DNA of 64,000 nucleotides from Chondromyces crocatus. GTDB taxonomy: Bacteria > Myxococcota_A > Polyangia > Polyangiales > Polyangiaceae. Position 1 is the first letter of the stretch; each line of letters opens with the position of its first letter. The notes beneath the pieces are model-generated. The model had not been told where the DNA came from, searched no databases, and saw nothing but the letters and a program-made list of their open reading frames with translations. The stretch covers positions 4,168,525 to 4,232,524 of the forward strand of contig NZ_CP012159.1 in assembly GCF_001189295.1 (NCBI RefSeq), in the 5' to 3' direction. This document shows positions 5,700-38,140 of this stretch, piece by piece. The position numbers and the translations under genes were made by a program.

Positions 5700-5723
5700 A
5701 TTCGTAACTCCACTGTCACCGAA

Positions 5724-5759: not shown

Positions 5760-6062
5760 GGGCCTCGTGGTCATGCCACCGGCAGTCGACCCAGCCCGTC
5801 CAGACATGGACGACACCGGCGCCGCTCCGGCGCTCAGCGATTCTCTACTCCCTCCCGCATTTCAACCTGCGCGTTGCGTGATTCGTCCCACGAATCGCGC
5901 GCCCTCCGGCGCCCCTCCTCGCTACACCGTGAGTCGACGTGCTTCGCCGCTGCGACACGATGCGCGAGGGCAGCCTCTCCAATGCAGTGAGCAGCAAATT
6001 GCCGCGTCGCGTCATGTGCCATGAACCTGTTCTTTTGAAAGCAACCGCCTTTCAACGCCGAG

Positions 6063-12229: not shown

Positions 12230-12240
12230 GCTGAGGCGAG

Positions 12241-13809
12241 ATGAGCAAATTCGCGCTTAAGACAGCCCTGCCACGTTATCTGCGCGCCGAGCAGGAGCGC
12301 ATCGAATCCATCGCCCGCGGATACGGTCTCGATTTCTTCCCGGTGATCTTCGAAATCCTGTCGTACGACCAGATGAACGAGATCGCAGCGTACAGCGGTT
12401 TTCCTAGCCGCTATCCGCACTGGCGCTGGGGGATGGAGTACGAGCAGCTCTCGAAGAGCTACGAGTATGGCCTCTCCAAGATCTACGAGATGGTCATCAA
12501 CAACAACCCGTCGTACGCCTACCTGCTGGAAGGCAACTCGCTGACGGACCAGAAGCTGGTGATGGCCCACGTGTTCGCCCACGTGGATTTCTTCAAGAAC
12601 AACTTCTGCTTCCGCTCCACGGATCTCGACCAGCGTGGAGGCATCGTCGATCCCGTTCGGCGCCCCGGGAAATACGATCCCGATCGACGCTGGATCGACA
12701 AGATGGCCAATCACGGCTCACGAATCTCACGGCATATCGAGCGCCACGGTCTGAACAAGATCGAGGCCTTCGTCGATCAGTGCCTCTCCCTCGAAAACCT
12801 GATCGATCCCTGGGCGCCCTTCAGCGGCAAGCCGCCGCCGAGAGACGAGGAGAGCGAGAACGAGGAGGAGCCGTCGCTCGACGTCTACCGGCTCCGCGCG
12901 AAGCCCTACATGGACGAGTTCATCAATCCGGAAGAGGTGCTCGAAGCGCAACGCAAGAAGCGCCAGGAGCAGAAACGTCCGGAGCGGCGGGTACCCGAGC
13001 AGCCCGAGCGCGACGTGCTGAAGTTCCTGCTCGATCACGCCCCGCTGGAGCGGTGGGAGAGCGACGTGCTCGAGGTCTTGCGGGAGGAGGCGTACTACTT
13101 CACACCGCAGCGCCAGACCAAGATCATGAACGAGGGCTGGGCGAGCTACTGGCACTCCAAGATGCTCACCGAGAAGGTCCTGGATGCCTCCGAGATCATC
13201 GACTACGCGGAAAACAATGCGGGCGTGATGGCCACGGCCCCGGGGCGCCTCAATCCATACAAACTGGGGGTCGAGCTCTATCGCGATATCGAAACGCGGT
13301 GGAACAAGGGGCAGTTTGGTCGAGAGTGGGAGGAGTGTCAGGATCTGGATGCAAAGCGCTCGTGGGACATGCGTCTCGGACTCGGGCGCGAGAAGATCTT
13401 CCAGGTGCGAGCGCTCTACAATGACGTGACCTTCATCGATGAATTCCTCACACCGGAGTTCGTCATCGAGCACAAGATCTACACCTTCGGTTTCTCGGGA
13501 AGAAACGACAGGTACGAGATCGAGAGCCGTGAATTCAAGCAGGTGAAAGAGAAGCTCCTCTTTCAGCTGACGAATTTCGGTGACCCCTACATCCGCGTGG
13601 TCGACGCCAATTACGCGAATCGCGGGGAGCTGTTGCTGGAGCACCAGCACGGCGGTGTCGACCTCCGTGCCGATTACGCCAGGGAGACGCTCATTGCGCT
13701 GGTTCGAGTGTGGAAGCGGCCCGTCGGAATCGCGACACGATTGGAGAATAAGCCGGTGCTCCTCCGGTATGACGGCAAAGAGCACTCGATGACGCCATTC
13801 AAACTATGA
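12241..13809 (+). CDS. spoVR: SpoVR family protein
   Basis: N-terminal [41 protein letters not shown] is the SpoVR hallmark. It directly follows yeaH, the usual operon order. Confidence 0.85.
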
Positions 13810-16065: not shown

Positions 16066-16153
16066 CGAAGAGGACGGTTGACTCTGCTTGCATGGTGGAG
16101 CAGCAGTGATGGAAGGCTGGTCACTCAGATCTTAATGCAGGAGAGCTGATATC

Positions 16154-21697: not shown

Positions 21698-22330
21698 GTG
21701 GCCGTCCCGCTCTCCCCACTCCCCGACAGGTCGAGTATCGACGCAATCGTCGAGACCATTATCTATCTCTACACGGAGAGCCGACGCCTCACGAAAGGGA
21801 TGGCGAGCTCATTCGGGCTCACTGGCCCGCAGCTGACCATTCTGAAGCTCCTGGAGTCGTTCCCCGATCTGTCTCTGTCCACGCTCTCCGAGCGGATCCA
21901 CGCACAGAACAGCACGGTCACGGGGATCATCGACCGCATGGAGCGCGAGGGGCTGGTCAGGAGAGAGCGCTCTCGTGTCGACCGCCGCGTCGTGTTGCTG
22001 CGTCTGAGCGAGAAGGGAGCCAGGCTCGCGCAGGAGATCCAGGTCGAGCCGATGGAGATCTTCCGTCAGGCGCTCTTCCGGCTCGACGCTGACGACCTGC
22101 ACGACCTCCTGCGGATCCTCATGAAGCTGCAGCGGGAGGTGCTGCAAGGGGTCGCCCAGTCGGGCAGCAAGCTCCCAGCACTCCCCGCGCAGGCGATGCA
22201 GGCCCTCGCGTCGGTGCCCGAGGTCGCCGCGACGCCGCAGGGGAGCGCAATGGCCGGGGATGGAGCGGAGTCGACCAAGGTGACGAAGCGTCGCGTACGT
22301 CCCGCGTCGACGAGCCGAAAGGAGCCGTGA
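21698..22330 (+). CDS. MarR family transcriptional regulator
   Basis: Winged-helix block LTGPQLTILKLLESFPDLSLSTLSERIHAQNSTVTGIIDRMEREGLVRRERSRVDRRVVLLRLSEKG. The true start may be internal. Confidence 0.75.
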   Translation: MAVPLSPLPDRSSIDAIVETIIYLYTESRRLTKGMASSFGLTGPQLTILKLLESFPDLSLSTLSERIHAQNSTVTGIIDRMEREGLVRRERSRVDRRVVLLRLSEKGARLAQEIQVEPMEIFRQALFRLDADDLHDLLRILMKLQREVLQGVAQSGSKLPALPAQAMQALASVPEVAATPQGSAMAGDGAESTKVTKRRVRPASTSRKEP

Positions 22331-23409: not shown

Positions 23410-24978
23410 ATGAACATGCGAGAGCTCGTGAAAGCGCTGGAGGAACGCCGCGCCGAGGTTCGGCGGATGGGTGGGGCAGAGCGGGTCGAGAAGCAGCACG
23501 CCCGAGGGAAGCTGACCGCGCGGGAGCGCCTCGCGCTCTTCTTCGATGATGGCGTCCATTTCGAGGTCGGCATGCACGGCACGCAGATGGGCCTCGCTGC
23601 CGGGCCGGATGGAAAGGATCGGCCCCCGGCCGACGCGGTGGTCTGTGCGTTCGGCAAGGTCGATGGCCGGATGACGTGCGCCGTCGCGTACGATTTCACC
23701 GTGAAGGGGGGGAGCATCGGGTACACGGGGGAGGAGAAGGTCACCCGGATGCGCCAGATGGCGCTACGGGGGCGCTGGCCCATCGTGTGGTTCATCGACT
23801 CCGCGGGCGCCCGGATCGATCCCGGATCGACGCATGCGGACCAGATCTCGCTGTTCGCTGGCTCGGGCCACCTGTTCCGCGAGCAGGTCCACATGAGCGG
23901 CGTCGTCCCTCAGGTGGCGGCGATGGTCGGGCCAGGCGCGGCGGGGACGGCCTACATCCCCGGCCTGGCGGACTTCGTGCCCATGGTGAAGGACATCGGG
24001 TCGATGGCGCTCGGAGGGCCTCCTCTCGTCAAGGCGATGACGGGGGAGGACATATCCGAACAGGAGCTCGGTGGGACGAAGGTCCACGCGACGAAGAGTG
24101 GCGTCGGTGACGCGGAGTATCCCGACGATCAGGCCTGCATCGCCGCGATCAAGCGGTACCTGTCCTTCTTCCCCGCGAGCTGTGACGAGGAGCCCCCGCA
24201 GCTCGCCGTGACCGACCCCGTCGAACGCGCCGAGGAGTCGTTGCTCGATCTCCTGCCCGAGAACCCGCGACGCGCCTACGACATGTACAAGCTCATCGCG
24301 GCAGTGGTCGATCACGGGGAGTACTTCGATCTGAAGCCTCGGTGGGCGCGCTCGATCATCACCTGCCTCGCGCGCATCGGCGGGCAGAGCGTGGGCATCG
24401 TCGCGAACCAGCCCATGCAGCTGGGAGGCATCCTCGGCGTCGATTCCGCCGACAAAGCGGCGCGGTTCATCCAGATCTGCGACGCCTTCAACATCCCCCT
24501 GGTGTTCCTGCAGGACGTCCCCGGCTTCATGATCGGGTCGAAGGTGGAGCACGAGGGGATCATCCGGCACGGAGCGAAGCTGCTCCATGTGATGGCTGCG
24601 GCGACCGTCCCCAAGATCTCGGTCGTCGTCCGGAAGGCCTACGGCGCGGGCTACTACGTCATGTGTGGCCGCGCCTATGAGCCGGATCTCATCGTCGGGT
24701 GGCCGACCGCCGAGATCAGCGTCATGGGGCCCGAGGGCATGCTCGGGATCGCTGCCAGGAAGATGTTCGGCGACACGCCGCCTCCTCCCGAGGTGAAGCA
24801 GCAGATCGTCGACTCCATCCAGAAGAACATCGACGTCATGAAGGTGGCCGGGTGGGGGCTCATCGATGACGTCATCGATCCGCGCGAGACCCGTCGCGCC
24901 ATCGCGTGGGGGCTGGATCTCGCCCGGAAGAAGCGCGTGGAACGGCCGCACCGGAAGCGCGGCATCATCCCGGTCTGA
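23410..24978 (+). CDS. Acyl-CoA carboxylase carboxyltransferase (beta) subunit (methylcrotonyl-/propionyl-CoA carboxylase type)
   Basis: KLTARERLALFFDDG...FGKVDGRMTCAVAYDFTVKGGSIGYTGEEK...IVANQPMQLGGILGVDSADKAARFIQICDAFNIPLVFLQDVPGFMIG, about 520 aa. Confidence 0.85.
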   Translation: MNMRELVKALEERRAEVRRMGGAERVEKQHARGKLTARERLALFFDDGVHFEVGMHGTQMGLAAGPDGKDRPPADAVVCAFGKVDGRMTCAVAYDFTVKGGSIGYTGEEKVTRMRQMALRGRWPIVWFIDSAGARIDPGSTHADQISLFAGSGHLFREQVHMSGVVPQVAAMVGPGAAGTAYIPGLADFVPMVKDIGSMALGGPPLVKAMTGEDISEQELGGTKVHATKSGVGDAEYPDDQACIAAIKRYLSFFPASCDEEPPQLAVTDPVERAEESLLDLLPENPRRAYDMYKLIAAVVDHGEYFDLKPRWARSIITCLARIGGQSVGIVANQPMQLGGILGVDSADKAARFIQICDAFNIPLVFLQDVPGFMIGSKVEHEGIIRHGAKLLHVMAAATVPKISVVVRKAYGAGYYVMCGRAYEPDLIVGWPTAEISVMGPEGMLGIAARKMFGDTPPPPEVKQQIVDSIQKNIDVMKVAGWGLIDDVIDPRETRRAIAWGLDLARKKRVERPHRKRGIIPV

Positions 24979-25041: not shown

Positions 25042-28000
25042 TCACGCGTCGTAACGGAACGGCGCCCTCGCCTGCGCGTAGGCCTGGATGAGCGCCCGTT
25101 CCTCCGGCGTCAGCTTCACGAAGCGCGCCCCGAAGCCCGGGGGACCCTCCCCACCGGCTGGCCGAGCCCACTCCACGACCCCCATCACCTCGATGGTCCG
25201 CCCCTCGGGGAATGGGATCCGCACGGAGACCGTCGCCCCGCGCGCCGGCGTCCGGTGGGTGGGCACGAAGATCCCCCCTTGCTCGACCACGTCCTGCTCC
25301 GGCCCCGCCTGGTAGAAGTTCGCCGGACTGTTCCCGCCGAGCTTCGCCTCGAACCGCGGCGCTGGCGGCCCTGAGGGTCGTCCCCGGGTGAGTGCTTCCT
25401 TGAGCTTCTCGTCCAGGGAGCGCACCAGCGCCTCGACCTCGCTGAGGTGCTGCTCCACCGCACGGACCCCGAACGCGCTCTGGGTTGCCGACTTCGCGAG
25501 CGGCGCCACCGTCTGCTCCACGATCGACAGGTACTGCGAGACCACCTCGGACACCGAGGTATCGGTCTCCACCTGGACCTCCACCTTCGGCTGGGCGAGC
25601 GACCGCATCGCCGCCGAGAGGCGCTGCAGCTCCGGCGAAAGCCAGCTCTTGAGATCCCGCTCCTTCGCCCCGTCCTGGCTCGCGGTGACCGCGCCCCCGA
25701 TCGCCCCCCGGATCCCTTCGAGCTGCTCCGCCAGCATCGTCAAGGTCCCCGTCACCCGCACCACCGGGTCGTCGTCCTTGCCGCCCATCCGCTTGATGCG
25801 CTGGAAACCTCGCTTGATCTCGTCCCAGCGCGCCTCCTGCTCTGCCGAGAGCCTCCCCCGCATCTCGGCCAGCTTCAGCAGGTTCTGCTCCGCGCCGCTC
25901 GTGAGCGTCTGCGACTCGCTCGTGTAGTGGTCGTCCACCAGCCGGTCGATTTCCGCGTCCGTGTGCGCCGAGACCACCTTCTCCGTGAGCTTGTTCATGT
26001 TGCGGTAGCTGCCTTGCAGCTTGAACGGCGGCTCCGTGCGGAAGGCGTCCTCCTGCGAAGCGCTCCGGATGTACTCCTGGTTCACGGCCAGCAGCACCTT
26101 CTGCACCCGGAACAGGCGCTTCAGCACCTCCACGATCTCGGTGACCTCCGCCGCCGAGTAGGCGTAGCTGAAGTCCGTCGACGCGACCTCCTCCCCTTGC
26201 GCCAGCTTGACGAACCGATGCACGTCCGCCGGCTCTCGCCCTGCGAGCGGGGCGAGGGTCGGGTTCGACGTGAGCGCGTTCTCCAGGTAGCTCAGCGCGA
26301 AGATCGACTCCTTCCCGTCGAGGATGTCGCCCAGGTTGTACGTATCGGCCCGGTTCGAGAGCATGTCGGGGATCTGGAACCGCGCGCCGGACTCCGTGTA
26401 CGGGTTACCGGCCATCACCACACAGAACTTCTTCCCGCGCAGATCGTAGGTCCGCGTCCTGCCGCGCCAGACGCCCTCGATCCGCCGCTGCGCGTCGCAC
26501 AGCGAGATGAACTTCTGGAGCAGCTCCGGGTGCGTGTGCTGGATGTCGTCGAGGTACAGCATCACGTTGTTCCCCATCTCCAGCGCCAGGTTGATCTTCT
26601 CCACCTCTTGCCGCGCCGTCGCGTTGGGCGCCTCGGAGGGATCGATGGAGGTCACGTCGTGCCCCAGCGACGGGCCGTTCACCTTCATGAACACGAGCCC
26701 CAGCTTGCTCGCCACGTACTCCATCAGGGTCGTCTTGCCGTACCCGGGAGGCGAGATCAGCAGCAGCATGCCCATCAGGTCGGTGCGCTTCCCCTCGCCG
26801 GCCGACCCGAGCTGCTTCGCCAGGTTCGCGCCGATGAGCGGCAGGTACACCTCGTCGATCAGCCGGTTGCGCACGAACGACGTCAGCACCCGGGGCGAGA
26901 ACTCGTCGAGCCGCAGTCGCTGCTTCTCACGCTCCACGATCTCCGAACGCAGCTTGCGGTAGGCGCGGTAGCGGGGCATCCGCTCCCGCATCATCTCGCC
27001 CACCCGTGCGAGGAACTCGTCGAGCCGCAGCGTCAGCGCCCGCTCCCGGATGCGCGGGTGTTGCCCCAGGAGCCCCTCGACCCGCGCCTCCACCACCGCC
27101 GCGCTCGGCTCACGATCGAGCCGTCGCTCCGTCACCAGCACCACCGCGGCCTCGCGCACCAGGTATCCCAGGTGCGACCGCTGCGCGTCCCTCGACACGA
27201 ACGCCTCGAGCCAGGCCTGGGCCAGTGCGAGCTGCGCCGCGGGCTGAGGTTCGAGCTGCCGCAGGTCCTCTTCCAGCGCCCCGCGTCCGCCCTCCAGGTC
27301 CAGGTGGGCGAGGAGCGCGTCCCGCAGCTCGAACGCCCCTGTGCTCGTCACGAAGCGCGGATGATCGGCGCACAGCTCCTCCACCAGGTAGCGCGCCGAG
27401 AGGCGCACCTCTCCCTTGCCCGGCTCGATACCATGCGCCTTGGCGGCAGCTTCCACCGCCTGCTCCACCTCGGACGCCAGCGCATCCAGCGCCGACCCCG
27501 AGCTGCCCGACGGCTTCGCTTGCGGCTTCGACGCCTCCGGATCCTCCGCGACCGTCGCCTTCGCCTCCAGCTTCACGGCGACCTCGAGAAGCTGCGCCCG
27601 GAGCCGCCCCAGGCTTCGCGCCCGCCGGTGCAACACCTCCCGCGCGGCCGGCGCCATCGACGCCCAGCACAGGCACCCCAGGGCCCGCGCCCCGCTCGAA
27701 TACCGCAAGAGCCCCGCGGTCGACCGCAGCGCCAGCAGCTTCTCCAGGATCAGCGCGGTATCCCCATCGTGCACCCCGCGCTCGTAGCCCTCATCGTGGC
27801 GCTCGGCCGAGAAGGTCCGCACCACCGCGAGCAACCCCTCGTTCGGCCCTTGCGCCATCCTTCCCGTCGGACCCGCGTCCGACACCACCGACAGCGCCGC
27901 GTCCCGCAGCCCGGCGATGGACAGCCCCGCGCGCCCCGCCTCGGCATCCTCCAGCATCGACAGCGCCAGCAGCTCGCCGCGGTACACCTCCGCCGTCTCG

Positions 28001-30774
28001 CTGACCAGCTGCTGATCCCACAGCTCCCGCGCCGCGTTCAGCGCCGGATCGTCGATCGTCTCGAAGAAATCCGTGCCCGTCAGGTGCAGCGACAGCGCCC
28101 CGTGCTGCGGCACCAGCGTCAGCTCCAGCGGCTGCGTGTTCACGTTGAACTTGTGCCGCCCCAGCCGGATGACGCTGGTCCCCTCTTCGAACAGGTCCTC
28201 GCGATCCCGGAGCAGCCGGTGCGCATCCTGACGCGCCGACTTCAGCCGCGACTCCACCTCGTCGCTCTTGACCGAGTCCCCGAGCTTCGACAGCTCCCCG
28301 GCAAGATCGCGCACCTTCGCGACCATCGGGTCCGTCGCGAAGTAGGCGTTCAGCTCGTCCGCGTTCGCAAAGCTCCGCGCCCGCCGCACGACCCCTTGCA
28401 GGATCCTGTCGGCCGCGCCCACGAGGTTCTGGACCCGCCGCTGCCGCTCGTCCACGAGCTGCTGCCGCCGCGCCCCGATCGCCTCGTTCACCTCTTCCCG
28501 CTTCGCCGCCAGCTCCGAGAGGAACTCGTCGAACTCGCCGAAGCGCCCCTCCAGCTCCTCCAGCTGCACGAGGAGCTTCGACAGCTCGGTGTCGCACCGC
28601 TCCGGCGTGTCGCAGGCCGCCGCCGCGCTCGCCACGCTCTGGCCGAACAGCTTGAACTGCGCCCCGAACTCGGCCCGTCCCTCGGCCCCGCGGAGATCCC
28701 GCGTCCTCGCGTTCAGGATCGCCCGCGCCCGGTTGAGCTGCGCGTAGACCTCGCTCACCCCTTCCAGGATCCGCGTGCGCGCCGTCGGATCGTCCACCTT
28801 CAGCCCGGCCACGATCTCGCTGAGCAGCGACAGGCCGTCGTTCACCCCGTCGAGGTCTGCCTTGAAGGGCTGAAGCTCGCTCGACTTCTTCACCCCCTCG
28901 ATCTGATCCACCAGCGCGCCCAGCCGGTCCGTCAGCGGCTTGAACGCCGCGTCCCCCAGGAGGAACGCCGCCGCCGCCGCGCTCACCTCGTCGAACCGCG
29001 CGACGACCTCGGCCTCCAGCGCGTCCACCCGCGGGAGGTCCATGTACTTCAGCTCGCGCATCGTGATCAGGTGCCCGCGCTGCTTCCGCAGCTCCGTCAG
29101 CGCCCGCATGAATGCGTCCACGCTCTGCAGATCGTCGGGCCGCAGCCCCGACAGCACCCGCCGCTGCGTCTCGTCCGCCTCGGCCAGCGCCTGCGCCGCC
29201 CTCGCCCGGATCGCCTCGACCTTCTCGAACTCGTCGATGATGCTCTCGGCGACCTTGCGCAGCTCGCGCACCACCGTCGAGAGATCGCCTGCCTCCTCGT
29301 GACCGAGCCAGTAGTAGGCGTCGACCATCCGATCGCAGGTCTTGATCACGTCCTCGAAGGTCAACCGCGTCGGCTGCTCGCCCACGCAGAGCCGCCGCAA
29401 GCTGAGCGCCTCCGAGATCCCCCGCACGAGATCCGGGTTCCCCACCTTCGCCAGGTACGACCCGTCCGTCGGCACGGACGCCGCGTACTCCGCCGTGGTG
29501 AACGGCGTCTGCCAGATCTGCATCGGGTGGACGCGCGTCGCCTCGTCGCCCGTCGCCCGGAAGATCACCATCTTCCCGTCATCGAACAGGCTGTACCCGT
29601 GGCAAGGGATCGGCGTCGCGATCTCCTTCCGGATCACGTTGTACGGGAAGAGCAGGTACCTTCCGTCCGACAGCCGGTGGAAGACGTAGAGCACGTCCTC
29701 CCCGTTCGGCGACCGGATCACCCGCTCGAACAGCAGATCGTCGGCGCGCTCCTCGAACTTCTTGCTCTCCCCGGTGAGCAGGTAATACCCGTTCGGGAAG
29801 ACGATGCCCTGATCCTCGGGCAAGGTGAGGCAGGCCTGCCCGATCGCATCGAGCCGCGTCACCTTCTTGAGCCGGCTGTTGTAGACGAGGTAGCGGTAGT
29901 CCTGCTCCCGGAACGGCTTGATCTTGAGCAGGATCAGCGTCCCCAGCTTCGCGTACCGGATCTCCGCGTCGTCGAGCCCCTGGTTCGCGTCTTCCACCGG
30001 CTCGCTGTAGATCCCGAGCCCCGACGCCGTGTTGTTCTCCACCTTGACGGTCAGGTCACCGCCCACCGTCTCCACGAAGATCTCGTCGAGGATCGACACG
30101 TGCGGGTGCTTCCCCGCCACCTGATCCTCGCGCGTCGTCGCCTTCCACTCGAAGTCGTGCGAGCGCGGCCGGAGGTTGTCGTTCTCCCCGCGCCCGTCCA
30201 TGTACTTGATCCGGCCGGAGCCATCGACGCTCCACCGGAACACCTTCACGTCCCGCTCCGTGCTCCCCGTCTGGAAGATGGCGAGCAACCGCGTCTCCGT
30301 GCGCCGGAGTTGCAGGAGCCGCGTCTCCTTCGTGTAGCGGAACAGATCCTTGAAGTCCTTCACGAAGGCTGGATCCGCGAGGAACGCCTCCCCCTCCTCC
30401 AGCGGCACCGGCGCGAAGTCGTGCCCCTCCGCCGTCTGCGTGAAGCGGTGCAGCGCGAACACGTCGCTCACCTGCGCGTCCTGCTTCAGGCCCAGCACCA
30501 CCAGGTAGCCGACCAGCAGCCGCCCGCGGATGCTCACGATGTCCCGCGGGACGCAGTTGTGCTCGGTCCGGATCCGCTCGGTGGCCACGAGCTGCAGCTC
30601 CGTCCCACCGAACGCCTGCTTCCGGCGCTCGTTCAGCGTCTCGGCCTTCTTGCCGAGCGTCTCCGCGTGCTCGAGCAAGCGCCGGCGGATGACCTCGTAA
30701 CTCCCGCCCTCCAGGGCCTCCGCGCCACTCGACGCGGAGGCACCGGCGGCGGCCTCCGGTGCCTTGGATGTCAT
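25042..30774 (-). CDS. Giant (1910 aa) AAA+ ATPase (AAA_5/MoxR-dynein-like) with long coiled-coil regions and a C-terminal PilZ-like domain
   Basis: Single uninterrupted frame. Walker A LLLISPPGYGKTTLMEY, Walker B NVMLYLDDIQ, then CVVMAGNP. The last ~90 aa (RTPARGATVSVRIPFPEGRTIEVMGVVEW...GFGARFVKLTPEERALIQAY) look like a PilZ beta-barrel; the RxxxR-like RTPAR is present, DxSxxG is not obvious. Starts 90 bp downstream of flotillin-3 on the same strand. Confidence 0.7.
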   Translation of the reverse strand: MTSKAPEAAAGASASSGAEALEGGSYEVIRRRLLEHAETLGKKAETLNERRKQAFGGTELQLVATERIRTEHNCVPRDIVSIRGRLLVGYLVVLGLKQDAQVSDVFALHRFTQTAEGHDFAPVPLEEGEAFLADPAFVKDFKDLFRYTKETRLLQLRRTETRLLAIFQTGSTERDVKVFRWSVDGSGRIKYMDGRGENDNLRPRSHDFEWKATTREDQVAGKHPHVSILDEIFVETVGGDLTVKVENNTASGLGIYSEPVEDANQGLDDAEIRYAKLGTLILLKIKPFREQDYRYLVYNSRLKKVTRLDAIGQACLTLPEDQGIVFPNGYYLLTGESKKFEERADDLLFERVIRSPNGEDVLYVFHRLSDGRYLLFPYNVIRKEIATPIPCHGYSLFDDGKMVIFRATGDEATRVHPMQIWQTPFTTAEYAASVPTDGSYLAKVGNPDLVRGISEALSLRRLCVGEQPTRLTFEDVIKTCDRMVDAYYWLGHEEAGDLSTVVRELRKVAESIIDEFEKVEAIRARAAQALAEADETQRRVLSGLRPDDLQSVDAFMRALTELRKQRGHLITMRELKYMDLPRVDALEAEVVARFDEVSAAAAAFLLGDAAFKPLTDRLGALVDQIEGVKKSSELQPFKADLDGVNDGLSLLSEIVAGLKVDDPTARTRILEGVSEVYAQLNRARAILNARTRDLRGAEGRAEFGAQFKLFGQSVASAAAACDTPERCDTELSKLLVQLEELEGRFGEFDEFLSELAAKREEVNEAIGARRQQLVDERQRRVQNLVGAADRILQGVVRRARSFANADELNAYFATDPMVAKVRDLAGELSKLGDSVKSDEVESRLKSARQDAHRLLRDREDLFEEGTSVIRLGRHKFNVNTQPLELTLVPQHGALSLHLTGTDFFETIDDPALNAARELWDQQLVSETAEVYRGELLALSMLEDAEAGRAGLSIAGLRDAALSVVSDAGPTGRMAQGPNEGLLAVVRTFSAERHDEGYERGVHDGDTALILEKLLALRSTAGLLRYSSGARALGCLCWASMAPAAREVLHRRARSLGRLRAQLLEVAVKLEAKATVAEDPEASKPQAKPSGSSGSALDALASEVEQAVEAAAKAHGIEPGKGEVRLSARYLVEELCADHPRFVTSTGAFELRDALLAHLDLEGGRGALEEDLRQLEPQPAAQLALAQAWLEAFVSRDAQRSHLGYLVREAAVVLVTERRLDREPSAAVVEARVEGLLGQHPRIRERALTLRLDEFLARVGEMMRERMPRYRAYRKLRSEIVEREKQRLRLDEFSPRVLTSFVRNRLIDEVYLPLIGANLAKQLGSAGEGKRTDLMGMLLLISPPGYGKTTLMEYVASKLGLVFMKVNGPSLGHDVTSIDPSEAPNATARQEVEKINLALEMGNNVMLYLDDIQHTHPELLQKFISLCDAQRRIEGVWRGRTRTYDLRGKKFCVVMAGNPYTESGARFQIPDMLSNRADTYNLGDILDGKESIFALSYLENALTSNPTLAPLAGREPADVHRFVKLAQGEEVASTDFSYAYSAAEVTEIVEVLKRLFRVQKVLLAVNQEYIRSASQEDAFRTEPPFKLQGSYRNMNKLTEKVVSAHTDAEIDRLVDDHYTSESQTLTSGAEQNLLKLAEMRGRLSAEQEARWDEIKRGFQRIKRMGGKDDDPVVRVTGTLTMLAEQLEGIRGAIGGAVTASQDGAKERDLKSWLSPELQRLSAAMRSLAQPKVEVQVETDTSVSEVVSQYLSIVEQTVAPLAKSATQSAFGVRAVEQHLSEVEALVRSLDEKLKEALTRGRPSGPPAPRFEAKLGGNSPANFYQAGPEQDVVEQGGIFVPTHRTPARGATVSVRIPFPEGRTIEVMGVVEWARPAGGEGPPGFGARFVKLTPEERALIQAYAQARAPFRYDA

Positions 30775-30863
30775 CGGCGAAAACCTCGGCTCCCCGCGGG
30801 GAGCCCCCTACGAACCGAACCGAACACGCCTCCCCGACGGGAGCCCGCCACGAACCGAACCGA

Positions 30864-33137
30864 TCACGCCTGCGGGGGCTTGCCCAGATCGTCGATTCCC
30901 AGCTCGCGCGCCTTGTCCGCCAGCGCCTGGATCTGCTTGCGGCTCTCCGGATCGCTCGCCCCGCCCACGAGGCGCCCGAGCAGGTCGGAGAGGCTCGGCG
31001 CCGGCGCGCTGCCGGGCCGGTTCACCACGTCCTCGAACAGCGTCTTCACCGTCGCGCTCTGATCGATCACGCCGTCGACCGTCTGTCCCAGCGTCACCGC
31101 CTTCATGAAGCGATCGAAGAAGGCCCCATCGCCGCCGACGATGTTGATCTTCGCCGAGGAGAAGGCCGACCGGATGATCTCCGACTGCGCCCGCGCCACC
31201 TCGACCCGGGTCCGGATCTGCTCCAGCTCGATGAGCTTCTCCTTTTCCAGCCGGAGGCGGAACTCCTCGTGCTCGCGGCCCAGCCCATCGAGGGCCTTCA
31301 TCGCCGCCGCCTTCTCGGCCGTACCGGAGGCTTCTGCCAGCAACCGCTCCTTCACGGCGGTCGCCTCGGCAAGACCCATCTTCTCCTTCGACGTCGCCTC
31401 GGCGAGGCCCATCTTCTCCGTTGCGACCGCTTCGGCCTCGCGCGCCTTTGCCGCGGCCAGCCCGCGCTGTTCGATGCCGGTGGCCTCGGCGAGCAGCTTC
31501 TCGCGCGCCACATTGGCCTCCGCCAGCCCGCGCTTCTCCACGCCGGTGGCCTCGGCGAGCAGCTTCTCGCGCGCCACGTTGGCCTCGGCGAGTCCCTGGC
31601 GCTCGATGGCGGCGGCGTCGGCCTCCCGGACCTTCACCCGCACCATCCCCTGCTTCTCTTCGCCGCTGGCGGCGGCCTGCAGCTTCTCCAGCGTCACCCG
31701 GGCCTCGGCGAGCCCCGTCTTCTCCAGCGCCGCCGCGTCGGCCTCGCGGATGCGCACCTTCGCCAGCCCCTCGGCGGCGGCCTCGGCCTGCACACCCTCG
31801 GCGATCCGGATCTTCGCCCGCGTCGCCTTGTCGCTCGCTTCCAGCTCCGCGTCCGCGGTGATCACCTTCTCGCGGGCCCGGAACTTCGCGGCTTCCTCGC
31901 TCGCCTCGGCCGACTTGAGCTGCTTCACGAGCTGCTCTTGCGCCTCGGCCTCGGCGTTGATCCGCGTCACGTCCTTCAGGCGGTTCGCCTCGGCGACGGC
32001 GCGGACGTCCTTGATCCGCTCCTCTTCCTCCGCGACCGTCTTGTCCACCGAGATTCGCCCACGGATCACATCGGCGATCTCCTTGCGCTGCTGCTCCAGC
32101 TCCTTCTCGCGAGCGATCTGCTGCAGCGACACGTCGCGCTCACGCGCCACGACCTCGAGCTGCTTCGCGCGCTCCACGCGCTCCGTCTCCACCTGGATCT
32201 CGCGCACCTTGGCGCGCTCCGCGATGGCGATCCCGCGCTCCTTGGCCTCCCGCGCGACCCGGGCCTCCTCCTCGTTCTTCTCCTTCACGAGCAGGGTCTT
32301 CTTCTCCTCCTCGCTCGCGACGCGGGCCGCCTCGTTCTCCTCGCGGCTCTGCGCGATGGAGATCTCCTTCTTCGCCTTCGCTTCGGCCTCGGCGCGCCGG
32401 TGCTCGAACTGGAACACGGCCTCGTCGGCGTGCAGGTTCTGGCTCCCGATCTCCATCCTCTCCTTCTGCCGCAGCTCGTTGGTGAGGATGTTCTGGATCA
32501 CCGTCAGATCGGTGATCTTCTTGATGCCCTCGGCATCCATGATGTTGTCTTTGTCGAGGGCCTCGAGCGGCGTCTGCTCCAGGTAGTCGATCGCCGCGTC
32601 GTCGAGCACGAACCCGTTCAGGTCCTTGCCGATGACGTCGATGATGTCGTCCTTGAACTGCTGGCGCTCCTTGTAGAGATCCTCGAAGTTCAGCCGCTTA
32701 CCGACCGTCTTCAGCGCCTCGGAGAACTTCGCCGTGAACAGGTCCTCCAGCGTCTTGTGGTCGGACGCGCGTGCGCACCCGATGGCCTGGGCCACCTTGA
32801 GCACGTCCTCCTGGGTCTTGTTCACCCGCACGAAGAACGTGACCTTGATGTCCGCGCGGATGTTGTCCTTGCAGATCAGCCCTTCCTTGCCGCGGCGGTC
32901 GATCTCCACCGTCTTGACCGAGATGTCCATGATCTCGGCCTTGTTGATGATCGGGTAGACCACCTTCCCGGTGAAGGTGACGATGGGCTCGGTCTTCATC
33001 GTGTTGATGATCAGCGCGCGGCCTTGTTCCACCTGCCGGTAGAACTTGGCGACGATGAGCAGGGTGCCAAAGACCGCGAGCGCGATCAGGCAGATGACGA
33101 CCACGAACGGAAGGTACTGCTCCAGGCTCTGGGGCAC
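30864..33137 (-). CDS. Flotillin / SPFH family protein, paralog 3 (757 aa, long EA-rich coiled-coil repeats)
   Basis: N-terminal TM LPFVVVICLIALAVFGTLLIV, SPFH core (PIVTFTGKVVYPIINKAEIMDISVKTVEI), repeated GLAEANVAREKLLAEATG units, and a C-terminus like the other two flotillins. Confidence 0.85.
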   Translation of the reverse strand: MPQSLEQYLPFVVVICLIALAVFGTLLIVAKFYRQVEQGRALIINTMKTEPIVTFTGKVVYPIINKAEIMDISVKTVEIDRRGKEGLICKDNIRADIKVTFFVRVNKTQEDVLKVAQAIGCARASDHKTLEDLFTAKFSEALKTVGKRLNFEDLYKERQQFKDDIIDVIGKDLNGFVLDDAAIDYLEQTPLEALDKDNIMDAEGIKKITDLTVIQNILTNELRQKERMEIGSQNLHADEAVFQFEHRRAEAEAKAKKEISIAQSREENEAARVASEEEKKTLLVKEKNEEEARVAREAKERGIAIAERAKVREIQVETERVERAKQLEVVARERDVSLQQIAREKELEQQRKEIADVIRGRISVDKTVAEEEERIKDVRAVAEANRLKDVTRINAEAEAQEQLVKQLKSAEASEEAAKFRAREKVITADAELEASDKATRAKIRIAEGVQAEAAAEGLAKVRIREADAAALEKTGLAEARVTLEKLQAAASGEEKQGMVRVKVREADAAAIERQGLAEANVAREKLLAEATGVEKRGLAEANVAREKLLAEATGIEQRGLAAAKAREAEAVATEKMGLAEATSKEKMGLAEATAVKERLLAEASGTAEKAAAMKALDGLGREHEEFRLRLEKEKLIELEQIRTRVEVARAQSEIIRSAFSSAKINIVGGDGAFFDRFMKAVTLGQTVDGVIDQSATVKTLFEDVVNRPGSAPAPSLSDLLGRLVGGASDPESRKQIQALADKARELGIDDLGKPPQA

Positions 33138-33518
33138 GACGCACTCCTCTTGCTAGCGACGGGGGCGAGACTACACGAAGCCTCGATGGACCGAAGAAGG
33201 AACGAGCCACGCCATGCTGCTCGTCTGCCTGTTTTTTCGGCGTCGGGTGATGTGACGCCTCCCCCGCGGCATTCCGCGACGAGGCGAGGCAAGACGCCTC
33301 AGCGTCCGGTTCGGCTGTCCCAAGTCGGCGAATTCGCTGAGGCATGTGCGCCCTCAGAAGCGCATCACGCTGCGGAGAAGCGCACCCTCCTCGCGTCCTG
33401 GCTCACGTGCGCGGCGCGCTCTCCCGGGCGCGGCGCGTTCTCCGGGGCGTGTTCGCGCATTGCAGCGTGACGATGGGATCCCCTCGTCGCTTCGGTGCGT
33501 GGGCTCGGCCTGCTGGCC

Positions 33519-33590
33519 TGATGAACGAGCGCTGCGCTCGGAGATGAACGAGCGCTGCGTCCGGAGATGAACGAGCGCGGCGCGCGCGGA
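33519..33590. repeat. Three tandem ~22-bp direct repeats (gagatgaacgagcgctgcgYYcg) between NfeD and flotillin-3
   Basis: gatgaacgagcgctgcgctcg / gagatgaacgagcgctgcgtccg / gagatgaacgagcgcggcgcgcg, read directly from the sequence. Lies in the 460-bp gap upstream of the flotillin-3 start. Confidence 0.6.
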
Positions 33591-33598
33591 CGGGAGCG

Positions 33599-34537
33599 TC
33601 AGCCAGCTCCTCGCCGTGCTTCCTTGGAGTCCAGCGCTTCCACGCCCTCCAGTTCGGCGGCCTCTCCGAGGGCCTCTCTCGCCGCATCCGCGCCTGCCGG
33701 CGCCACGGGGTCGACCTCCAGGCGTTGAATGCGCCGCTCGACCAGCAGGTCTTCCATGGGCTCGACGAAGAAGACCTCGCGCTCCGGGTGGTAGCTCACG
33801 AGCACGGCCTTGTCGCCCTGGCGCAGCACGCCCGGCGAATCGCAGCGCACGTTGAGGATCAGCCCTGCGCCGCCGTCGTGGAGAACCCCTTGCCCGAAGC
33901 GCTCGTCGACGCGGCCCGTGGAGATGATCACCGTCTTCCCCACGAGGTCCATCACCGACTGCGCCGCCTGCGTCACGAACAGCGAGCCGAGCGGGCGCAC
34001 CACCAGCGACGTGAGCGGCAGCGCGATGACGAACGACACCAGCAGCAAGATCCCCTTGAACAGCCAGCCCGGCAGCCCGATGCCTTCCCACAGCGGGCTC
34101 ACGTGCAGCTGCGAGAGCACCGCGAGCAGCCACCCGAACGTCGCGATCAGCGTCAGCACCACCGTCGCGGGGACGCGGTTCAGGTGGAGCGAGCCCACCA
34201 CCCCGGCGAGCCCTCCGCCGCCGACGTGCCCGGCCTCTCCCACGCCCTCGCCCGAGTGGCCTCCCAGCACCCCCTTGGCAGCGCCCTCGATCGTCCCTTT
34301 GGTCGCCCCTTCGAGCGTGCCCTTGATGGTGCCGTCCAGCGTGCCTTTGAGGGCGCCGTCCAGCGTGCCCTTGATGGCGCCGTCCAGCGCCGCATCGGCG
34401 CCTCCGTCGGCGGCGCCGAGCGCGTCGATGTCCAGCGCACCGAGCACCACGAAGAACCAGTAGATCAGCGCCAGCGCCAGCACCCCCGAGTAGATCACGG
34501 CGGGGAAAGCGAGGGACGCGTCGAGCAGCGCGACCAT
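33599..34537 (-). CDS. NfeD-like membrane protein (long form): N-terminal multi-TM plus C-terminal OB-fold
   Basis: Start is taken at the internal ATG (MVALLDASLAFPAVIYSGVLALALIYWFFV). TM helices, a Gly/Ala/Thr-rich linker, then DLVGKTVIISTGRVDERFGQGVLHDGGAGLILNVRCDSPGVLRQGDKAVLVSYHPEREVFFVEP, the NfeD beta-barrel signature. The 468-aa ORF extends upstream (to 35005) without support. Confidence 0.6.
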   Translation of the reverse strand: MVALLDASLAFPAVIYSGVLALALIYWFFVVLGALDIDALGAADGGADAALDGAIKGTLDGALKGTLDGTIKGTLEGATKGTIEGAAKGVLGGHSGEGVGEAGHVGGGGLAGVVGSLHLNRVPATVVLTLIATFGWLLAVLSQLHVSPLWEGIGLPGWLFKGILLLVSFVIALPLTSLVVRPLGSLFVTQAAQSVMDLVGKTVIISTGRVDERFGQGVLHDGGAGLILNVRCDSPGVLRQGDKAVLVSYHPEREVFFVEPMEDLLVERRIQRLEVDPVAPAGADAAREALGEAAELEGVEALDSKEARRGAG

Positions 34538-34694
34538 CGGCGCAGCGTATGCCAAAGACGGCGGCGCGCGCAGGCGATTCGACACGTCGCCCCACCTTCG
34601 ACGCCTTGCTCCCTCGAAGACGGACGTGCTCCCATCCGCCCGCGCTGGGTCCTCCTTCGCGATCGGCGGACCGAGCGGACCGACAGGCATCCCC

Positions 34695-35636
34695 ATGAAC
34701 GAACCTCCCCTCGTCACGCGCGACGACATCACCGCGGCCGCGCAACGTATCGATGCGCACGTCCGAACGACCCCGATCATCCGCATGGAGACCGGCGCGT
34801 TCGGCATCCAAGCTGCGCTGGTCCTCAAGCTCGAGTCCCTCCAGCACACCGGATCCTTCAAGGTGAGGGGCGCCTTCAACCGCATGCTCTCGGCGGACGT
34901 CCCTCCGGCGGGCGTCATCGCCGCGTCGGGTGGCAACCACGGAGTCGCCGTGGCGTATGCCGCCCAGCGCCTCGGCCACGTCTCGGAGATCTTCGTCCCG
35001 CGCACCGCGGCGTCCGTGAAGGTCGAGCGACTCCGCCGCTACGGCGCGCGGGTCACCCAGGTCGGTGAGCGGTACGCGGACGCCCTCCTCGCAAGCCAGG
35101 CCCGCGCGCGCGAGACGGGCGCGCTCGAGGTCCACGCCTTCGACCAGCCCGAGGTCGTGGCGGGGCAGGGGACCCTGGGACGCGAATTCCAGGCGCAAGC
35201 GCCCGAGGTCGAGACCCTCCTCGTCGCCGTCGGTGGCGGCGGGCTCATCGCGGGCGTCGCGTCCTGGACCGCCAGCGAGGTCCGCGTCGTCAGCGTCGAA
35301 CCCGAGGCCGCGCCCACGCTCCACGCCGCCCTCCAGGCGGGGCGGCCCACCACGGTCCCCGTCGCTGGCGTCGCGGTGGACGCCCTCGGCGCCTCCCGGG
35401 TGGGCGAGATCGCGTTCGCCGTCGCGCGGCGCCACATCGAGCGGGCCGTCCTGGTCGACGACGAGGCCATCCTCGCCGCGCGCCGTGTGCTGTGGGACGA
35501 ACTCCGGATCGCCACCGAGCCGAGCGGCGCCGCGGCCTTCTCCGCGCTCCTGTCCGGCGCATACCGCCCGCGGGAGGGCGAGCGGGTGGGCGTGGTGATT
35601 TGTGGGGGGAATGCGGACCCGCGTACCCTCGCATAG
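34695..35636 (+). CDS. PLP-dependent threonine/serine dehydratase family enzyme
   Basis: PLP-lysine motif LQHTGSFKVRGAFN, glycine loop GVIAASGGNHGVAVAYAAQRLG, C-terminal GVVICGGNAD. Diverges from the NfeD gene. Confidence 0.8.
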   Translation: MNEPPLVTRDDITAAAQRIDAHVRTTPIIRMETGAFGIQAALVLKLESLQHTGSFKVRGAFNRMLSADVPPAGVIAASGGNHGVAVAYAAQRLGHVSEIFVPRTAASVKVERLRRYGARVTQVGERYADALLASQARARETGALEVHAFDQPEVVAGQGTLGREFQAQAPEVETLLVAVGGGGLIAGVASWTASEVRVVSVEPEAAPTLHAALQAGRPTTVPVAGVAVDALGASRVGEIAFAVARRHIERAVLVDDEAILAARRVLWDELRIATEPSGAAAFSALLSGAYRPREGERVGVVICGGNADPRTLA

Positions 35637-35971: not shown

Positions 35972-38140
35972 ATGACGCCGCCTTCCACACCCCGACCTCC
36001 GCTCACCGCCGGTATGGTCATCGCCGACAAGTACCGGCTCCTTCGCCACCTCGGCACGGGCGCCATGGGCGTCGTCTGGGCGGCGATCAACGAGGCGACC
36101 GGGCGAGAGGTCGCGCTCAAGCTCATCGTCGCCCCGGTCGATGCTCTGCGTCGCCGGGTCGAACGCGAAGCCCACGCGTGTGGAGCCCTCCGCCACCCCA
36201 ACATCGTCGACATCTACGACGCGGTGCACACCGCCGAGGGCGATCCCGTCCTGGTCCTCCAGCTCCTCCAGGGAGAGACCCTCGCCGATCTCCTCACGCG
36301 CCGTCGCCGTCTCGAACCCGAACTCGCCGCCCACATCGGCCGCGAGATCGCCGCGGCCCTCACCGCCGTCCACGCCCTCGGGATCGTCCACCGCGATCTC
36401 AAGCCCGCGAACATCTTCCTCCACCGCGAGCACGACGGCGGCACCCCCGTGGTGAAGGTCCTCGATTTCGGCGTCAGCAAGCCAGCGCCGGGGAGGACGC
36501 CGGTCTGCACCGCGCCAGGCGACGCCGTGGGCTCACTGCCCTACATGAGCCCCGAGCAGGTCCGCGCCGCCGTCGACGTCGACCTCCGCGCCGACATCTG
36601 GTCGCTGGGCGTCGTGCTCTTCGAGATGCTCACCGGCGAGCGCCCGTTCCAGGGCAACTTCAGCGAGATCGTCCTCCAGATCCTCCAGGGCCAGGTCCCG
36701 CGCGTCAGCCGCTACGTCCGCCACGTCGACCCGGAGTTCGTCGACCTCGTCGCGGGCTGCATGCGGCGCCAGCGCGAGCTGCGCCTCGGCCCCGCCGAGC
36801 ACATCGTCCGGGGCCTCGATCGCCTCGTTGGCGACGTCGACCCCTGGAGCCTCCCGCTCGGGACCACGGCGCCGAGGCGCTCCGAGGCCGAGCCCTGCCC
36901 GGAGCTCCACCGCCAGCACACGCCCGTCTGGAACACGACGTTCGCGCGCTCCACCTCTCCCGGATGGCCCGCCGCGCAGCCACCCGCCTCCGACCGACCG
37001 CGCGAGACCCTCTTGCCCGATCAAGATCGCGTCCGCACCCGCATCGGCTTCGCCGATCCCGCGCCCTGGCGGCTCAACGCTGCCGAATTTTCCGACGCGC
37101 CCCCCCTTTCCTGGCCCGAGCACGAACCGCCCGGCCTGCCAGAGCCCCCGCCTCCGCTGCGCCAGTCGTACTCCTCCCTGCCGGGAGCGCAGCGCCGCGT
37201 CGCCTGGGAAGTGCCGCCCCCGGCCGAACCCGACCCCCAGCGCAACGCCTCGACCTTCGGGAGCGATGCCGACCCGCTCGTTCACACCGGCCCCCGCGGC
37301 GTCGCAGCCTCCTCGGCCGAGGCCGAGCTGCCCACCCGCGCGGAGCGCACCTCGCACCTCCCCGATCTCTCGCGCATCTCCGCGATACCGAGCTCGTTGA
37401 GCGACCGCGCGACGCAGAACAGCCGGACCAGCATCGGCTCCATGTCGGTCCCCGACAGCCGCCGAAGCCTCACCGCCCGCTTGCCTGGGCTCACCACCCA
37501 CTGGCGCGGCGCGCTCTTCATCTCCACCATCGCCACCTTGCTCGCCGCTGGCGCCGTCTCGGCGCTGATCTCCGCGTTCCCGCTGGGAACCCAGGCCGAA
37601 GCTACCCTCGACGCCGACGCCGACGGCGACGCCGAGGCCACCGGCCCCGAGCTGCCGGCCCTCGCCGAGCGATGCCCCGTGCCCACGCTCGGCGCCACCC
37701 CCGCGCGCCCCTCGCGCCCGCTGCGCGTGCCCGCCGCCCTCGCCGCGACCACCCTCGTCGCCATCCCACCGGGCCCCTCGAACGAACCCGAGAGCGACGC
37801 GCTCACCGAGCCCGCCCCTCCACCTCCAGCCCCTGATCAGGCCGAGGCCCGCGCCTCCACCGAGGCCCTCGAGCCCTCGATGTCGGATGACCCCCCCGCA
37901 TCCGAGCCCGCGACCGCGCAGGCCGATGCCACCACGCAGGCCGGCGCCTCCGACGCGCCCGCCACGCCGCGCGCCTCCAGAGGACCCAGCGCCTCGGCCT
38001 TCAACGCGGCACCCATCGCCTCGAAGAGCAGCCGCGCCGGTGCCGCACCGATGCCGCGCGGCGCCACGCCCTCGCGCTGCGTGAACCCGCAATTCCTCCA
38101 GCGTGCCCGCTGCAGCAAGCAGCCACCGGGCCGACGCTGA
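35972..38140 (+). CDS. Ser/Thr protein kinase with Pro/Ala-rich tail and one TM segment
   Basis: YRLLRHLGTGAMGVVWAA...EVALKLI...HALGIVHRDLKPANIFL...VKVLDFGVSK...SLPYMSPEQ. A TM helix sits near residue 500 (ALFISTIATLLAAGAVSALISAF). Confidence 0.85.
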   Translation: MTPPSTPRPPLTAGMVIADKYRLLRHLGTGAMGVVWAAINEATGREVALKLIVAPVDALRRRVEREAHACGALRHPNIVDIYDAVHTAEGDPVLVLQLLQGETLADLLTRRRRLEPELAAHIGREIAAALTAVHALGIVHRDLKPANIFLHREHDGGTPVVKVLDFGVSKPAPGRTPVCTAPGDAVGSLPYMSPEQVRAAVDVDLRADIWSLGVVLFEMLTGERPFQGNFSEIVLQILQGQVPRVSRYVRHVDPEFVDLVAGCMRRQRELRLGPAEHIVRGLDRLVGDVDPWSLPLGTTAPRRSEAEPCPELHRQHTPVWNTTFARSTSPGWPAAQPPASDRPRETLLPDQDRVRTRIGFADPAPWRLNAAEFSDAPPLSWPEHEPPGLPEPPPPLRQSYSSLPGAQRRVAWEVPPPAEPDPQRNASTFGSDADPLVHTGPRGVAASSAEAELPTRAERTSHLPDLSRISAIPSSLSDRATQNSRTSIGSMSVPDSRRSLTARLPGLTTHWRGALFISTIATLLAAGAVSALISAFPLGTQAEATLDADADGDAEATGPELPALAERCPVPTLGATPARPSRPLRVPAALAATTLVAIPPGPSNEPESDALTEPAPPPPAPDQAEARASTEALEPSMSDDPPASEPATAQADATTQAGASDAPATPRASRGPSASAFNAAPIASKSSRAGAAPMPRGATPSRCVNPQFLQRARCSKQPPGRR

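Follow-up and report, generated by a model that had tools for sequence, protein, structure and literature searches.

A YqiJ-like/flotillin/AAA+ ATPase module in Chondromyces crocatus and its PilZ-tailed form in Polyangia

Ravi et al. (2024; mSystems, PMC11237479) described an operon consisting of a YqiJ/YuaF protein, a Band-7/flotillin protein and an AAA ATPase with a beta-propeller and a coiled coil, occurring with or without a CesT/Tir-PspA pair. They proposed a role in sub-membrane dynamics and reported that abbreviated operons without PspA were more widely distributed; one of their examples lies beside the PspA protein ANH61663.1 of Dokdonia donghaensis. We analyzed a 64,000-nucleotide stretch of the Chondromyces crocatus genome (contig NZ_CP012159.1, positions 4,168,525 to 4,232,524; hereafter the window) that carries a yqiJ-like gene, a flotillin gene and a gene for a giant ATPase on the minus strand. 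Gene content, gene order and domain architecture agree with the operon of Ravi et al., the N-terminus of the window ATPase being propeller-like. A first-pass annotation made from the sequence alone had presented the coupling of flotillin to such an ATPase as a novelty, but the association was already known from comparative genomics and was not discovered here. Loci from Hymenobacter and Reichenbachiella displayed the full CesT/Tir-PspA-YqiJ-flotillin-ATPase form with an ATPase of the DUF3686 family, and the window module and the published operon can therefore be treated as one system. The Chondromyces locus corresponds to the abbreviated form, as the CesT/Tir-PspA dyad was not found nearby. 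It differs from the published operon in a long Gly/Ala-rich insert in the YqiJ-like protein, in a 461-bp gap between the yqiJ-like and flotillin genes, and in a PilZ fold at the C-terminus of the ATPase that occurs in the Polyangia lineage and is unmentioned by Ravi et al.

Several known systems share parts of this design. The yqiJ-yqiK pair of Escherichia coli and the yuaF-floT pair of Bacillus subtilis (NfeD2-SPFH2; PMC2636767) likewise encode first a small protein with three transmembrane (TM) helices and a beta domain at its C-terminus, then a TM-anchored flotillin; unlike in the window, no ATPase gene lies downstream of E. coli yqiJ-yqiK. An SPFH scaffold is also coupled to an AAA+ protein at the membrane in the HflK/C-FtsH and prohibitin-m-AAA protease complexes (cited in PMC13086221). 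FtsH, however, is a membrane-anchored protease of the classical AAA clade, whereas the window ATPase is AAA_5-like, has neither a TM segment nor a protease domain, carries a huge N-terminal extension of propeller-like and helical parts and has no homology to FtsH past the P-loop. Against this background our analysis adds counts for the synteny of the module, support for a separate subfamily of partner flotillins, a corrected domain map (a propeller-like N-terminus of the ATPase and a YqiJ-type membrane protein) and a Polyangia-specific PilZ tail of a probable non-binding adaptor type, which steers away from a simple model of a cyclic di-GMP (c-di-GMP) receptor. The Polyangia form with its PilZ tail is a variant not described before, and its significance is modest.

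Synteny of the module and its partner flotillin

Relatives of the ATPase were collected by a pattern scan of one genome per species, 80 loci were fetched and the window proteins were searched against all loci by tblastn. At least 582 loci in species-representative genomes carried a relative of the ATPase, and the family comprised 966 clusters at 50% identity. The fetched loci came from Myxococcota, Actinomycetota, Gamma- and Betaproteobacteria, Acidobacteriota and Planctomycetota, and the module was present in at least six phyla. Of the 83 loci whose upstream flank was long enough, 82 carried a flotillin gene with an SPFH domain upstream of the ATPase gene and in the same orientation. This flotillin gene was adjacent in all but a few, and at one locus (L011) it stood ~8 kb upstream. 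The yqiJ-like gene was found immediately upstream of the flotillin gene in the window and in ~78 related loci, a pairing described for NfeD2 and SPFH2 by Hinderhofer et al. (2009; PMC2636767). The same order of a small TM protein, an SPFH protein of ~650-720 aa and the ATPase was observed on two Myxococcota contigs and on plasmids of Pseudomonas, Streptomyces, Hymenobacter and Deinococcus. The genes also lie close together in the related loci, the estimated medians of the two gaps being 56 bp (flotillin to ATPase) and 29 bp (yqiJ-like to flotillin). This arrangement of flotillin and ATPase genes is far beyond chance, and the expectation that homologues of the giant gene would lie next to SPFH genes in other genomes was borne out.

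The flotillins encoded beside the ATPase appear to be specific to it. Thirteen records of the plasmid collection carried the ATPase, and these were the same 13 whose flotillin had an SPFH domain 40-61% identical to that of the window, while the other flotillin matches listed among the plasmids reached at most 29% identity to this domain. Because of this one-to-one pairing and the gap in identity, the ATPase-linked flotillins are best regarded as a separate subfamily that travels with the ATPase. Together with the near-universal synteny, the pairing is consistent with the proposal that the locus is a dedicated, conserved module coupling a flotillin scaffold to a giant ATPase with a single AAA+ domain, and a functional linkage of the three genes is strongly supported by these comparisons. 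As the role of bacterial flotillins is still unsettled, a one-to-one tie of this kind across no fewer than six phyla and 582 species-level genomes offers a tractable handle, in that loss of the motor should give a flotillin-specific phenotype.

The window flotillin starts with a TM helix (the sequence has a hydrophobic stretch at aa ~9-31), continues with an SPFH domain and a long Glu/Ala-rich coiled coil with internal repeats of 11, 22 and 40 aa, and ends in a C-terminal tail. Pfam and NCBIfam scans of the whole-length protein gave nothing; the SPFH/Band_7 match (PF01145) appeared only when the N-terminal 250 aa were scanned alone, with the low-complexity coiled coil removed. BLASTP aligned 434 aa of the protein with E. 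coli YqiK (E 5e-30, 26% identity), related database records are named flotillin family protein, and we assign it on these alignments to the SPFH2 (YqiK-FloT) type. The coiled-coil region is encoded in part by tandem repeats of 33, 66 and 120 nt (31362-31771; GLAEA...REKLLAEATG units), and through its repeats the protein, at 757 aa, exceeds most orthologues in length (estimated median 687 aa).

Synteny also bears on the name under which the ATPase is filed. The giant protein is identical over its full length (100%) to a C. crocatus protein named 'DNA repair ATPase', and if this label were correct the flotillin neighbour would be incidental. The name is carried by Pfam DUF3686 and by NCBI records, and we found no literature behind it. 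The ATPase has membrane proteins for partners in 82 of 83 loci and contains no domain for DNA binding, nuclease or helicase activity, and the similarity to RuvB is confined to the P-loop segment (E 5e-4, below cutoff). A role in DNA repair is hardly credible on these grounds.

Another reading of the distribution is a phage-defence or conflict system in which the large ATPase senses infection and the SPFH protein is the membrane effector. Its presence on plasmids and megaplasmids, its patchy spread over phyla, which resembles horizontal gene transfer, and one orphan ATPase fragment adjoining an integrase would fit this. However, the PADLOC matches of the ATPase were of P-loop length only (Walker A region; best E 1e-3), with none for the flotillin or the YqiJ-like protein, and no nuclease, protease or toxin domain was found. 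Identity across phyla of 45-60% for the ATPase and 40-61% for the flotillin SPFH domain is also unlike that of fast-evolving defence genes, and the module is recurrently linked to the envelope-stress genes PspA and YjfI. We consider a defence function very unlikely.

The PspA linkage is the basis of a further alternative, that the ATPase is mainly a Vps4-like motor disassembling PspA/IM30 polymers of the ESCRT-III type and that flotillin merely recruits it to damaged membrane. In ~15-19 loci of proteobacteria and Bacteroidota, PspA and YjfI-type CesT/Tir genes were found upstream of the module, directly so in many gamma- and betaproteobacteria and Bacteroidota, and Ravi et al. (PMC11237479) rank the operon among the partners of PspA and draw an analogy to Snf7-Vps4 for AAA+ partners. 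What Vps4 with ESCRT-III and PspA with AAA+ partners share with the window module is the idea that an AAA+ motor recycles a polymer bound to the membrane. The window ATPase, however, does not belong to the classical clade, and no MIT or MIT-like domain was detected in it. PspA- and YjfI-like genes were not detected by tblastn with two queries beside the module in ~27 Myxococcota and ~28 Actinomycetota loci or in the window, a search of limited sensitivity that divergent PspA may escape. By contrast, flotillin is nearly always adjacent and belongs to an ATPase-specific subfamily. A motor devoted to PspA, though plausible where a PspA gene adjoins the module, is thus unlikely, if less so than a defence system. 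A longer stress cluster was observed at gammaproteobacterial loci such as the Pseudomonas plasmid pQBR103 (L003, 968-6092), where the module follows genes for YjfI, PspA, a rhomboid protein, DUF2491, DUF350 and DUF1190 proteins and a glutathionylspermidine synthase; this cluster is the polyamine-linked PspA operon that Ravi et al. (2024; PMC11237479) likewise described.

Architecture of the ATPase and the YqiJ-like protein

Pfam resolved the giant ATPase into DUF3686, DUF7902, an AAA+ core and a PilZ-like tail (Table 1), and DUF3686, DUF7902 and a single AAA module were common to all 120 closest homologues. No TM segment is present. An AlphaFold2 model of residues 1-700 (pLDDT, predicted local distance difference test, 85.6) displayed a long helix at 24-55, ~28 strands within residues 61-422 and helical bundles at 440-700. 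The first-pass annotation had described more than 1500 aa of helical or coiled-coil sequence, which does not agree with the beta-rich region of this model. The top matches of the model in the PDB by Foldseek were all beta-propellers (Elp1, DCAF1, Fbw7, prolyl oligopeptidase and Vps11; E 3e-6 to 1e-4, probability ~1.0), yet with low TM-scores (template modeling scores), and structural support for calling this N-terminal domain a propeller, as Ravi et al. do, is moderate. A 'protocoatomer-like' combination of propeller and helices, suggested by Foldseek matches to clathrin, Vps11, IFT-A and nucleoporins, was rejected as the TM-scores were 0.1-0.2 and the helices resemble spectrin-type bundles, not a solenoid.

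The AAA+ core was recognized above cutoff by AAA_5 (34.7 bits against 22) and by AAA (29.4 bits against 21.2). The Walker A (SPPGYGKTT) and Walker B (MLYLDDIQ) sequences picked out earlier are present in the translation. In an alignment of 24 diverse homologues (33-56% identity) this core was extremely conserved, with invariant columns at G1344-T1349, D1409, D1410, N1457 and R1475. A profile search of PDB sequences revealed no solved relative, matching the Walker A region alone (NVL, Rix7, RuvB and p97; E ~1e-3). The MoxR/AAA_5 group is among the closest described ATPases, AAA_5 being the best Pfam AAA model, and the sensor-1 region 'AGNPYTESG..F.IPDMLANRAD' resembles 'NP.E..G...LP.A.LDRF', which we take to be the MoxR-type pattern. 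The window ATPase differs from MoxR in its Asp-Asp Walker B, in having no VWA partner and in its match to AAA_3, the model of MoxR proper, at E 0.19.

Some family members depart from the single-chain form. In a Reichenbachiella sp. (L089, 9001-13967) the ATPase is split into a 1088-aa gene with DUF3686 and DUF7902 and a 572-aa AAA gene that overlap by 19 nt, within a full CesT_Tir-PspA-YqiJ-flotillin operon; this may be a real split or a frameshift. A second locus (L088, 9001-12123) carries an orphan 1040-aa N-terminal fragment without flotillin, beside an integrase, and many proteins of ~1,040-1,200 aa in the family have the N-terminal domains alone. A reading of the N-terminal-only proteins of ~1,040-1,090 aa as split genes was not retained, as the evidence fits frameshifts or remnants equally.

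In the membrane protein of the module, a TM helix at the N-terminus is followed by a repeat linker rich in Gly, Ala and Asp, then by two further TM helices and a C-terminal beta domain. The protein had been annotated as a long-form NfeD, a class defined by an N-terminal ClpP-like (ClpP-class) serine protease domain (PMC2636767, PMC13086221). We obtained no Pfam match to NfeD or to a protease, and the extra length is a repetitive Gly/Ala-rich linker that differs in length among homologues, so this designation was dropped. Pfam (including NfeD PF01957 and YqiJ_N PF21001) and NCBIfam gave no match for the window protein, a profile search of PDB sequences with it found nothing, and only one of 24 relatives matched each of PF01957 and YqiJ_N (E ~0.008-0.01). 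The assignment therefore rests on hhalign, which aligned a 24-sequence family profile with E. coli YqiJ over 131 columns spanning TM2-TM3 and the C-terminal beta domain (probability 94%, E 1.4e-7). The beta domain was the best-conserved part of the alignment and aligns to the C-terminus of E. coli YqiJ, and the protein also aligns with annotated DUF1449 proteins from other phyla. These alignments identify it as a YqiJ/YuaF-type (DUF1449) protein with three TM helices, that is, of the short NfeD2 type.

Across the family the module thus combines a YqiJ/YuaF-type 3-TM protein, a dedicated SPFH2/YqiK-like flotillin and a cytoplasmic ATPase of ~1,600-2,100 aa built from a propeller-like DUF3686, spectrin-like helical bundles with coiled coil (with DUF7902) and one AAA+ module. 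SPFH proteins are known to form large membrane-attached cages to which NfeD-type partners bind (HflK/C-FtsH, QmcA-YbbJ and FloA-NfeD; PMC13086221). By analogy, the flotillin and the YqiJ-like protein would together build an oligomeric scaffold at the cytoplasmic side of the inner membrane, and the ATPase would oligomerize via its AAA+ domain and reach this scaffold with its propeller and helical arms. ATP would drive assembly, disassembly or remodelling of the flotillin lattice or of the clients held in it, and in proteobacteria and Bacteroidota this remodelling would take place together with the adjacent CesT/Tir-PspA pair. We consider it probable that this widespread three-gene membrane module carries out ATP-driven remodelling of the flotillin/YqiJ-like scaffold, or of clients held by it, in envelope-stress maintenance. 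The reading is suggested by the invariant flotillin neighbour and its co-travelling subfamily, by the large protein-interaction domains of an ATPase without TM segments, and by PspA stress genes nearby in several phyla.

Several observations weigh against this remodelling function. The position of the catalytic Glu in Walker B is occupied by Asp in every aligned homologue, down to 33% identity, and hydrolysis may be slow or atypical or the protein switch-like. Contact between the ATPase and flotillin is proposed from synteny, and a literature search found no experimental work on any family member. At a single locus, from a Labilithrix sp. metagenome-assembled genome (L025), neither a flotillin nor a YqiJ-like gene precedes the ATPase although all 10 kb of upstream flank are available; this locus may represent a paralogue or a rearrangement. 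The YqiJ-like protein lacks Pfam support and its oligonucleotide/oligosaccharide-binding (OB) fold is presumed. In the window itself the 461-bp gap parts the yqiJ-like gene from the flotillin gene, which leaves co-transcription of all three genes putative.

The PilZ-fold tail of the Polyangia ATPases

The C-terminus of the window ATPase had been described as PilZ-like, and it does fold as a PilZ domain in prediction. Pfam PilZ matched aa 1832-1900 (E 4e-6, 27.5 bits against a cutoff of 22.5; profile positions 32-100 of 102), and the PilZ-related, Myxococcus-type NCBIfam model TIGR02266 matched below its cutoff (E 2e-12; profile positions 26-94 of 96). AlphaFold2 modelled the last 125 aa as a PilZ beta-barrel with a C-terminal helix (pLDDT 89; predicted TM-score, pTM, 0.80), and all significant Foldseek matches of the tail in the PDB were PilZ proteins. 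The top matches were the Xanthomonas PilZ structures 7lkm, 4fou and 7lkq, from complexes with PilB and FimX, and XC1028 (3dsg), with E values from 2e-4 to 2e-3, identities of 23-33% and moderate TM-scores of 0.46-0.71. The entry for 3dsg is described as PilZ domain-like with 'trivial c-di-GMP binding activity'. Xc1028 and Xac1133 are divergent PilZ proteins that lack the binding motifs and operate by contacting other proteins, namely FimX and the PilB ATPase (Galperin and Chou, bioRxiv 10.1101/814665). XAC1133/XC1028 and Pseudomonas aeruginosa PilZ (PA2960) are divergent 'xPilZ' adaptors of the PilB-PilZ-FimX complex. The Xanthomonas protein stands alone, whereas here the PilZ-fold domain forms the C-terminal end of an AAA+ protein.

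A PilZ-like tail was present in 106 of the 120 closest ATPase homologues. Among the fetched loci it was limited to those of the Polyangia type, and elsewhere it was never found as a separate neighbouring gene. The tail is thus a lineage-specific Polyangia addition that lies outside the core machine. The consensus of the 106 C-termini reads PRF(D/E)x..SxSNFY..DVVxxGGxFVxT..GFGAR. The RTPAR and GFGARFVKL segments noted earlier both fall within the last 105 aa, and RTPAR follows the GG motif and is not conserved.

From this tail the first-pass annotation had drawn a link to second-messenger sensing, with the PilZ domain binding c-di-GMP directly, gating the ATPase and so connecting the signal to flotillin remodelling. 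Apart from the Pfam score above the gathering threshold and the confident fold model, such a receptor would be in keeping with a conserved Arg at the first position of the RxxxR motif, with some Sorangium orthologues that read RFEAR or RYEAR and so formally contain RxxxR, and with the conserved Asp and Gly of DVVxxG. The binding motifs as a whole, however, are not conserved. The second Arg is replaced by Lys in Chondromyces (RFEAK) and by A, L, Q or V elsewhere among the 106 homologues, and (D/N)xSxxG reads DVVEQG in Chondromyces, with Val for Ser in nearly all 106 sequences. The hidden Markov model matches omit the N-terminal switch region, and a domain that is absent outside Polyangia can be no part of a core mechanism. 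GGDEF genes were found near the module in 3 of ~89 loci, too rarely for a general c-di-GMP link. With RxxxR and DxSxxG lost and non-binding PilZ proteins as the nearest structures, sensing of c-di-GMP is weakly supported, and we regard a direct receptor as quite unlikely.

By analogy with the PilZ proteins that bind PilB and FimX, the tail most likely acts as an adaptor that docks proteins, not as a receptor that binds c-di-GMP directly, and in Polyangia it would provide a docking site for a further partner. A more specific version of the remodelling function is possible and is put forward tentatively: the module would be a dedicated, ATP-driven machine for assembly and disassembly of the flotillin cage, the propeller and spectrin-like arms of the ATPase would grip the lattice, and the Polyangia tail would dock a regulator, possibly an EAL- or FimX-like c-di-GMP sensor, with the second messenger acting indirectly. 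If true, the module would provide the first known case of a motor working on an SPFH scaffold itself, in contrast to FtsH, which is caged by one.

The three GGDEF neighbours differ in placement. On a Deinococcus actinosclerus plasmid (L006) the GGDEF gene (4517-5998) immediately precedes the module in the same orientation, and at two gammaproteobacterial loci (L054 and L069) it lies ~1.5 kb or less downstream.

Gene layout and neighbouring features

The ORF (open reading frame) listing and analysis of GC content at third codon positions (GC3) both confirmed three genes on the minus strand, as had been annotated (Table 1). A convergent carboxyltransferase gene (23410-24978, plus strand) and a divergent gene for a pyridoxal phosphate (PLP) enzyme (34626-35636, plus strand) flank the unit, which therefore comprises three genes.

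Table 1. Coordinates of the module and its features in the 64,000-nucleotide C. crocatus window
Feature	Position	Strand	Details and basis
Giant ATPase gene	25042-30774	-	1910 aa; ATG start
PilZ-fold domain, aa 1806-1910	25045-25359	-	Pfam, AlphaFold2, Foldseek
AAA+ core, aa 1337-1460	26395-26766	-	Pfam AAA_5 E 2e-8, AAA E 1e-6
Walker B MLYLDDIQ (YLDDIQH)	26539-26562	-	Translation; Asp-Asp in place of Asp-Glu
Walker A SPPGYGKTT, aa 1341-1349	26728-26754	-	Translation; scored as GxxGxGK[ST]; invariant in 24 homologues
DUF7902, aa 610-692	28699-28947	-	Pfam E 4.9e-27; inside helical-bundle region, aa ~440-700
DUF3686, aa 40-488	29311-30657	-	Pfam E 1.5e-202; long N-terminal helix, then beta-rich propeller-like domain
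Flotillin/ATPase gap	30775-30863	-	89 bp; estimated median 56 bp in 82 related loci
Tandem repeat, 23 nt x 2.8	33520-33583		In the 461-bp gap, begins 15 nt past the yqiJ-like stop; Tandem Repeats Finder
Tandem repeat, 19 nt x 2.2	33409-33449		In the 461-bp gap; Tandem Repeats Finder
Tandem repeat, 40 nt x 2	30790-30871		Covers most of the 89-bp gap; Tandem Repeats Finder
Flotillin gene	30864-33137	-	757 aa; GTG start; AGAGGAG ribosome-binding site ahead
SPFH/Band_7 domain, aa 35-176	32610-33035	-	Pfam PF01145, E 1.4e-11, 45.2 bits against a cutoff of 23.6
yqiJ-like/flotillin gap	33138-33598	-	461 bp; sequence
yqiJ-like gene	33599-34537	-	312 aa; ORF and translation
C-terminal soluble beta domain (VGKTVIISTGRVDERFGQG...GDKAVLVSY...), presumed NfeD-type OB fold	33743-33955	-	Alignment, translation
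Tandem repeats of 24/48 nt in the yqiJ-like gene, coding for the (D/E)GxxKGxL linker	34314-34408	-	Tandem Repeats Finder

The yqiJ-like/flotillin gap is an outlier, the estimated median in 79 related loci being 29 bp. No Rfam family was matched in either intergenic gap, and promoter and terminator scans gave no such site on the coding (minus) strand.

Further genes in the window encode a SpoVR-like protein (12235-13809), a Cache-HAMP-SpoIIE phosphatase (16136-18535), a MarR protein (21698-22330) and a Ser/Thr protein kinase (35972-38140), none of which recurs beside the module in other genomes. The mechanical ORF of the yqiJ-like gene extends to 35005; the 312-aa form was chosen because it corresponds, with 100% identity and coverage, to the C. 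crocatus record CMC5_031750, named 'DUF1449 family protein' in UniRef.

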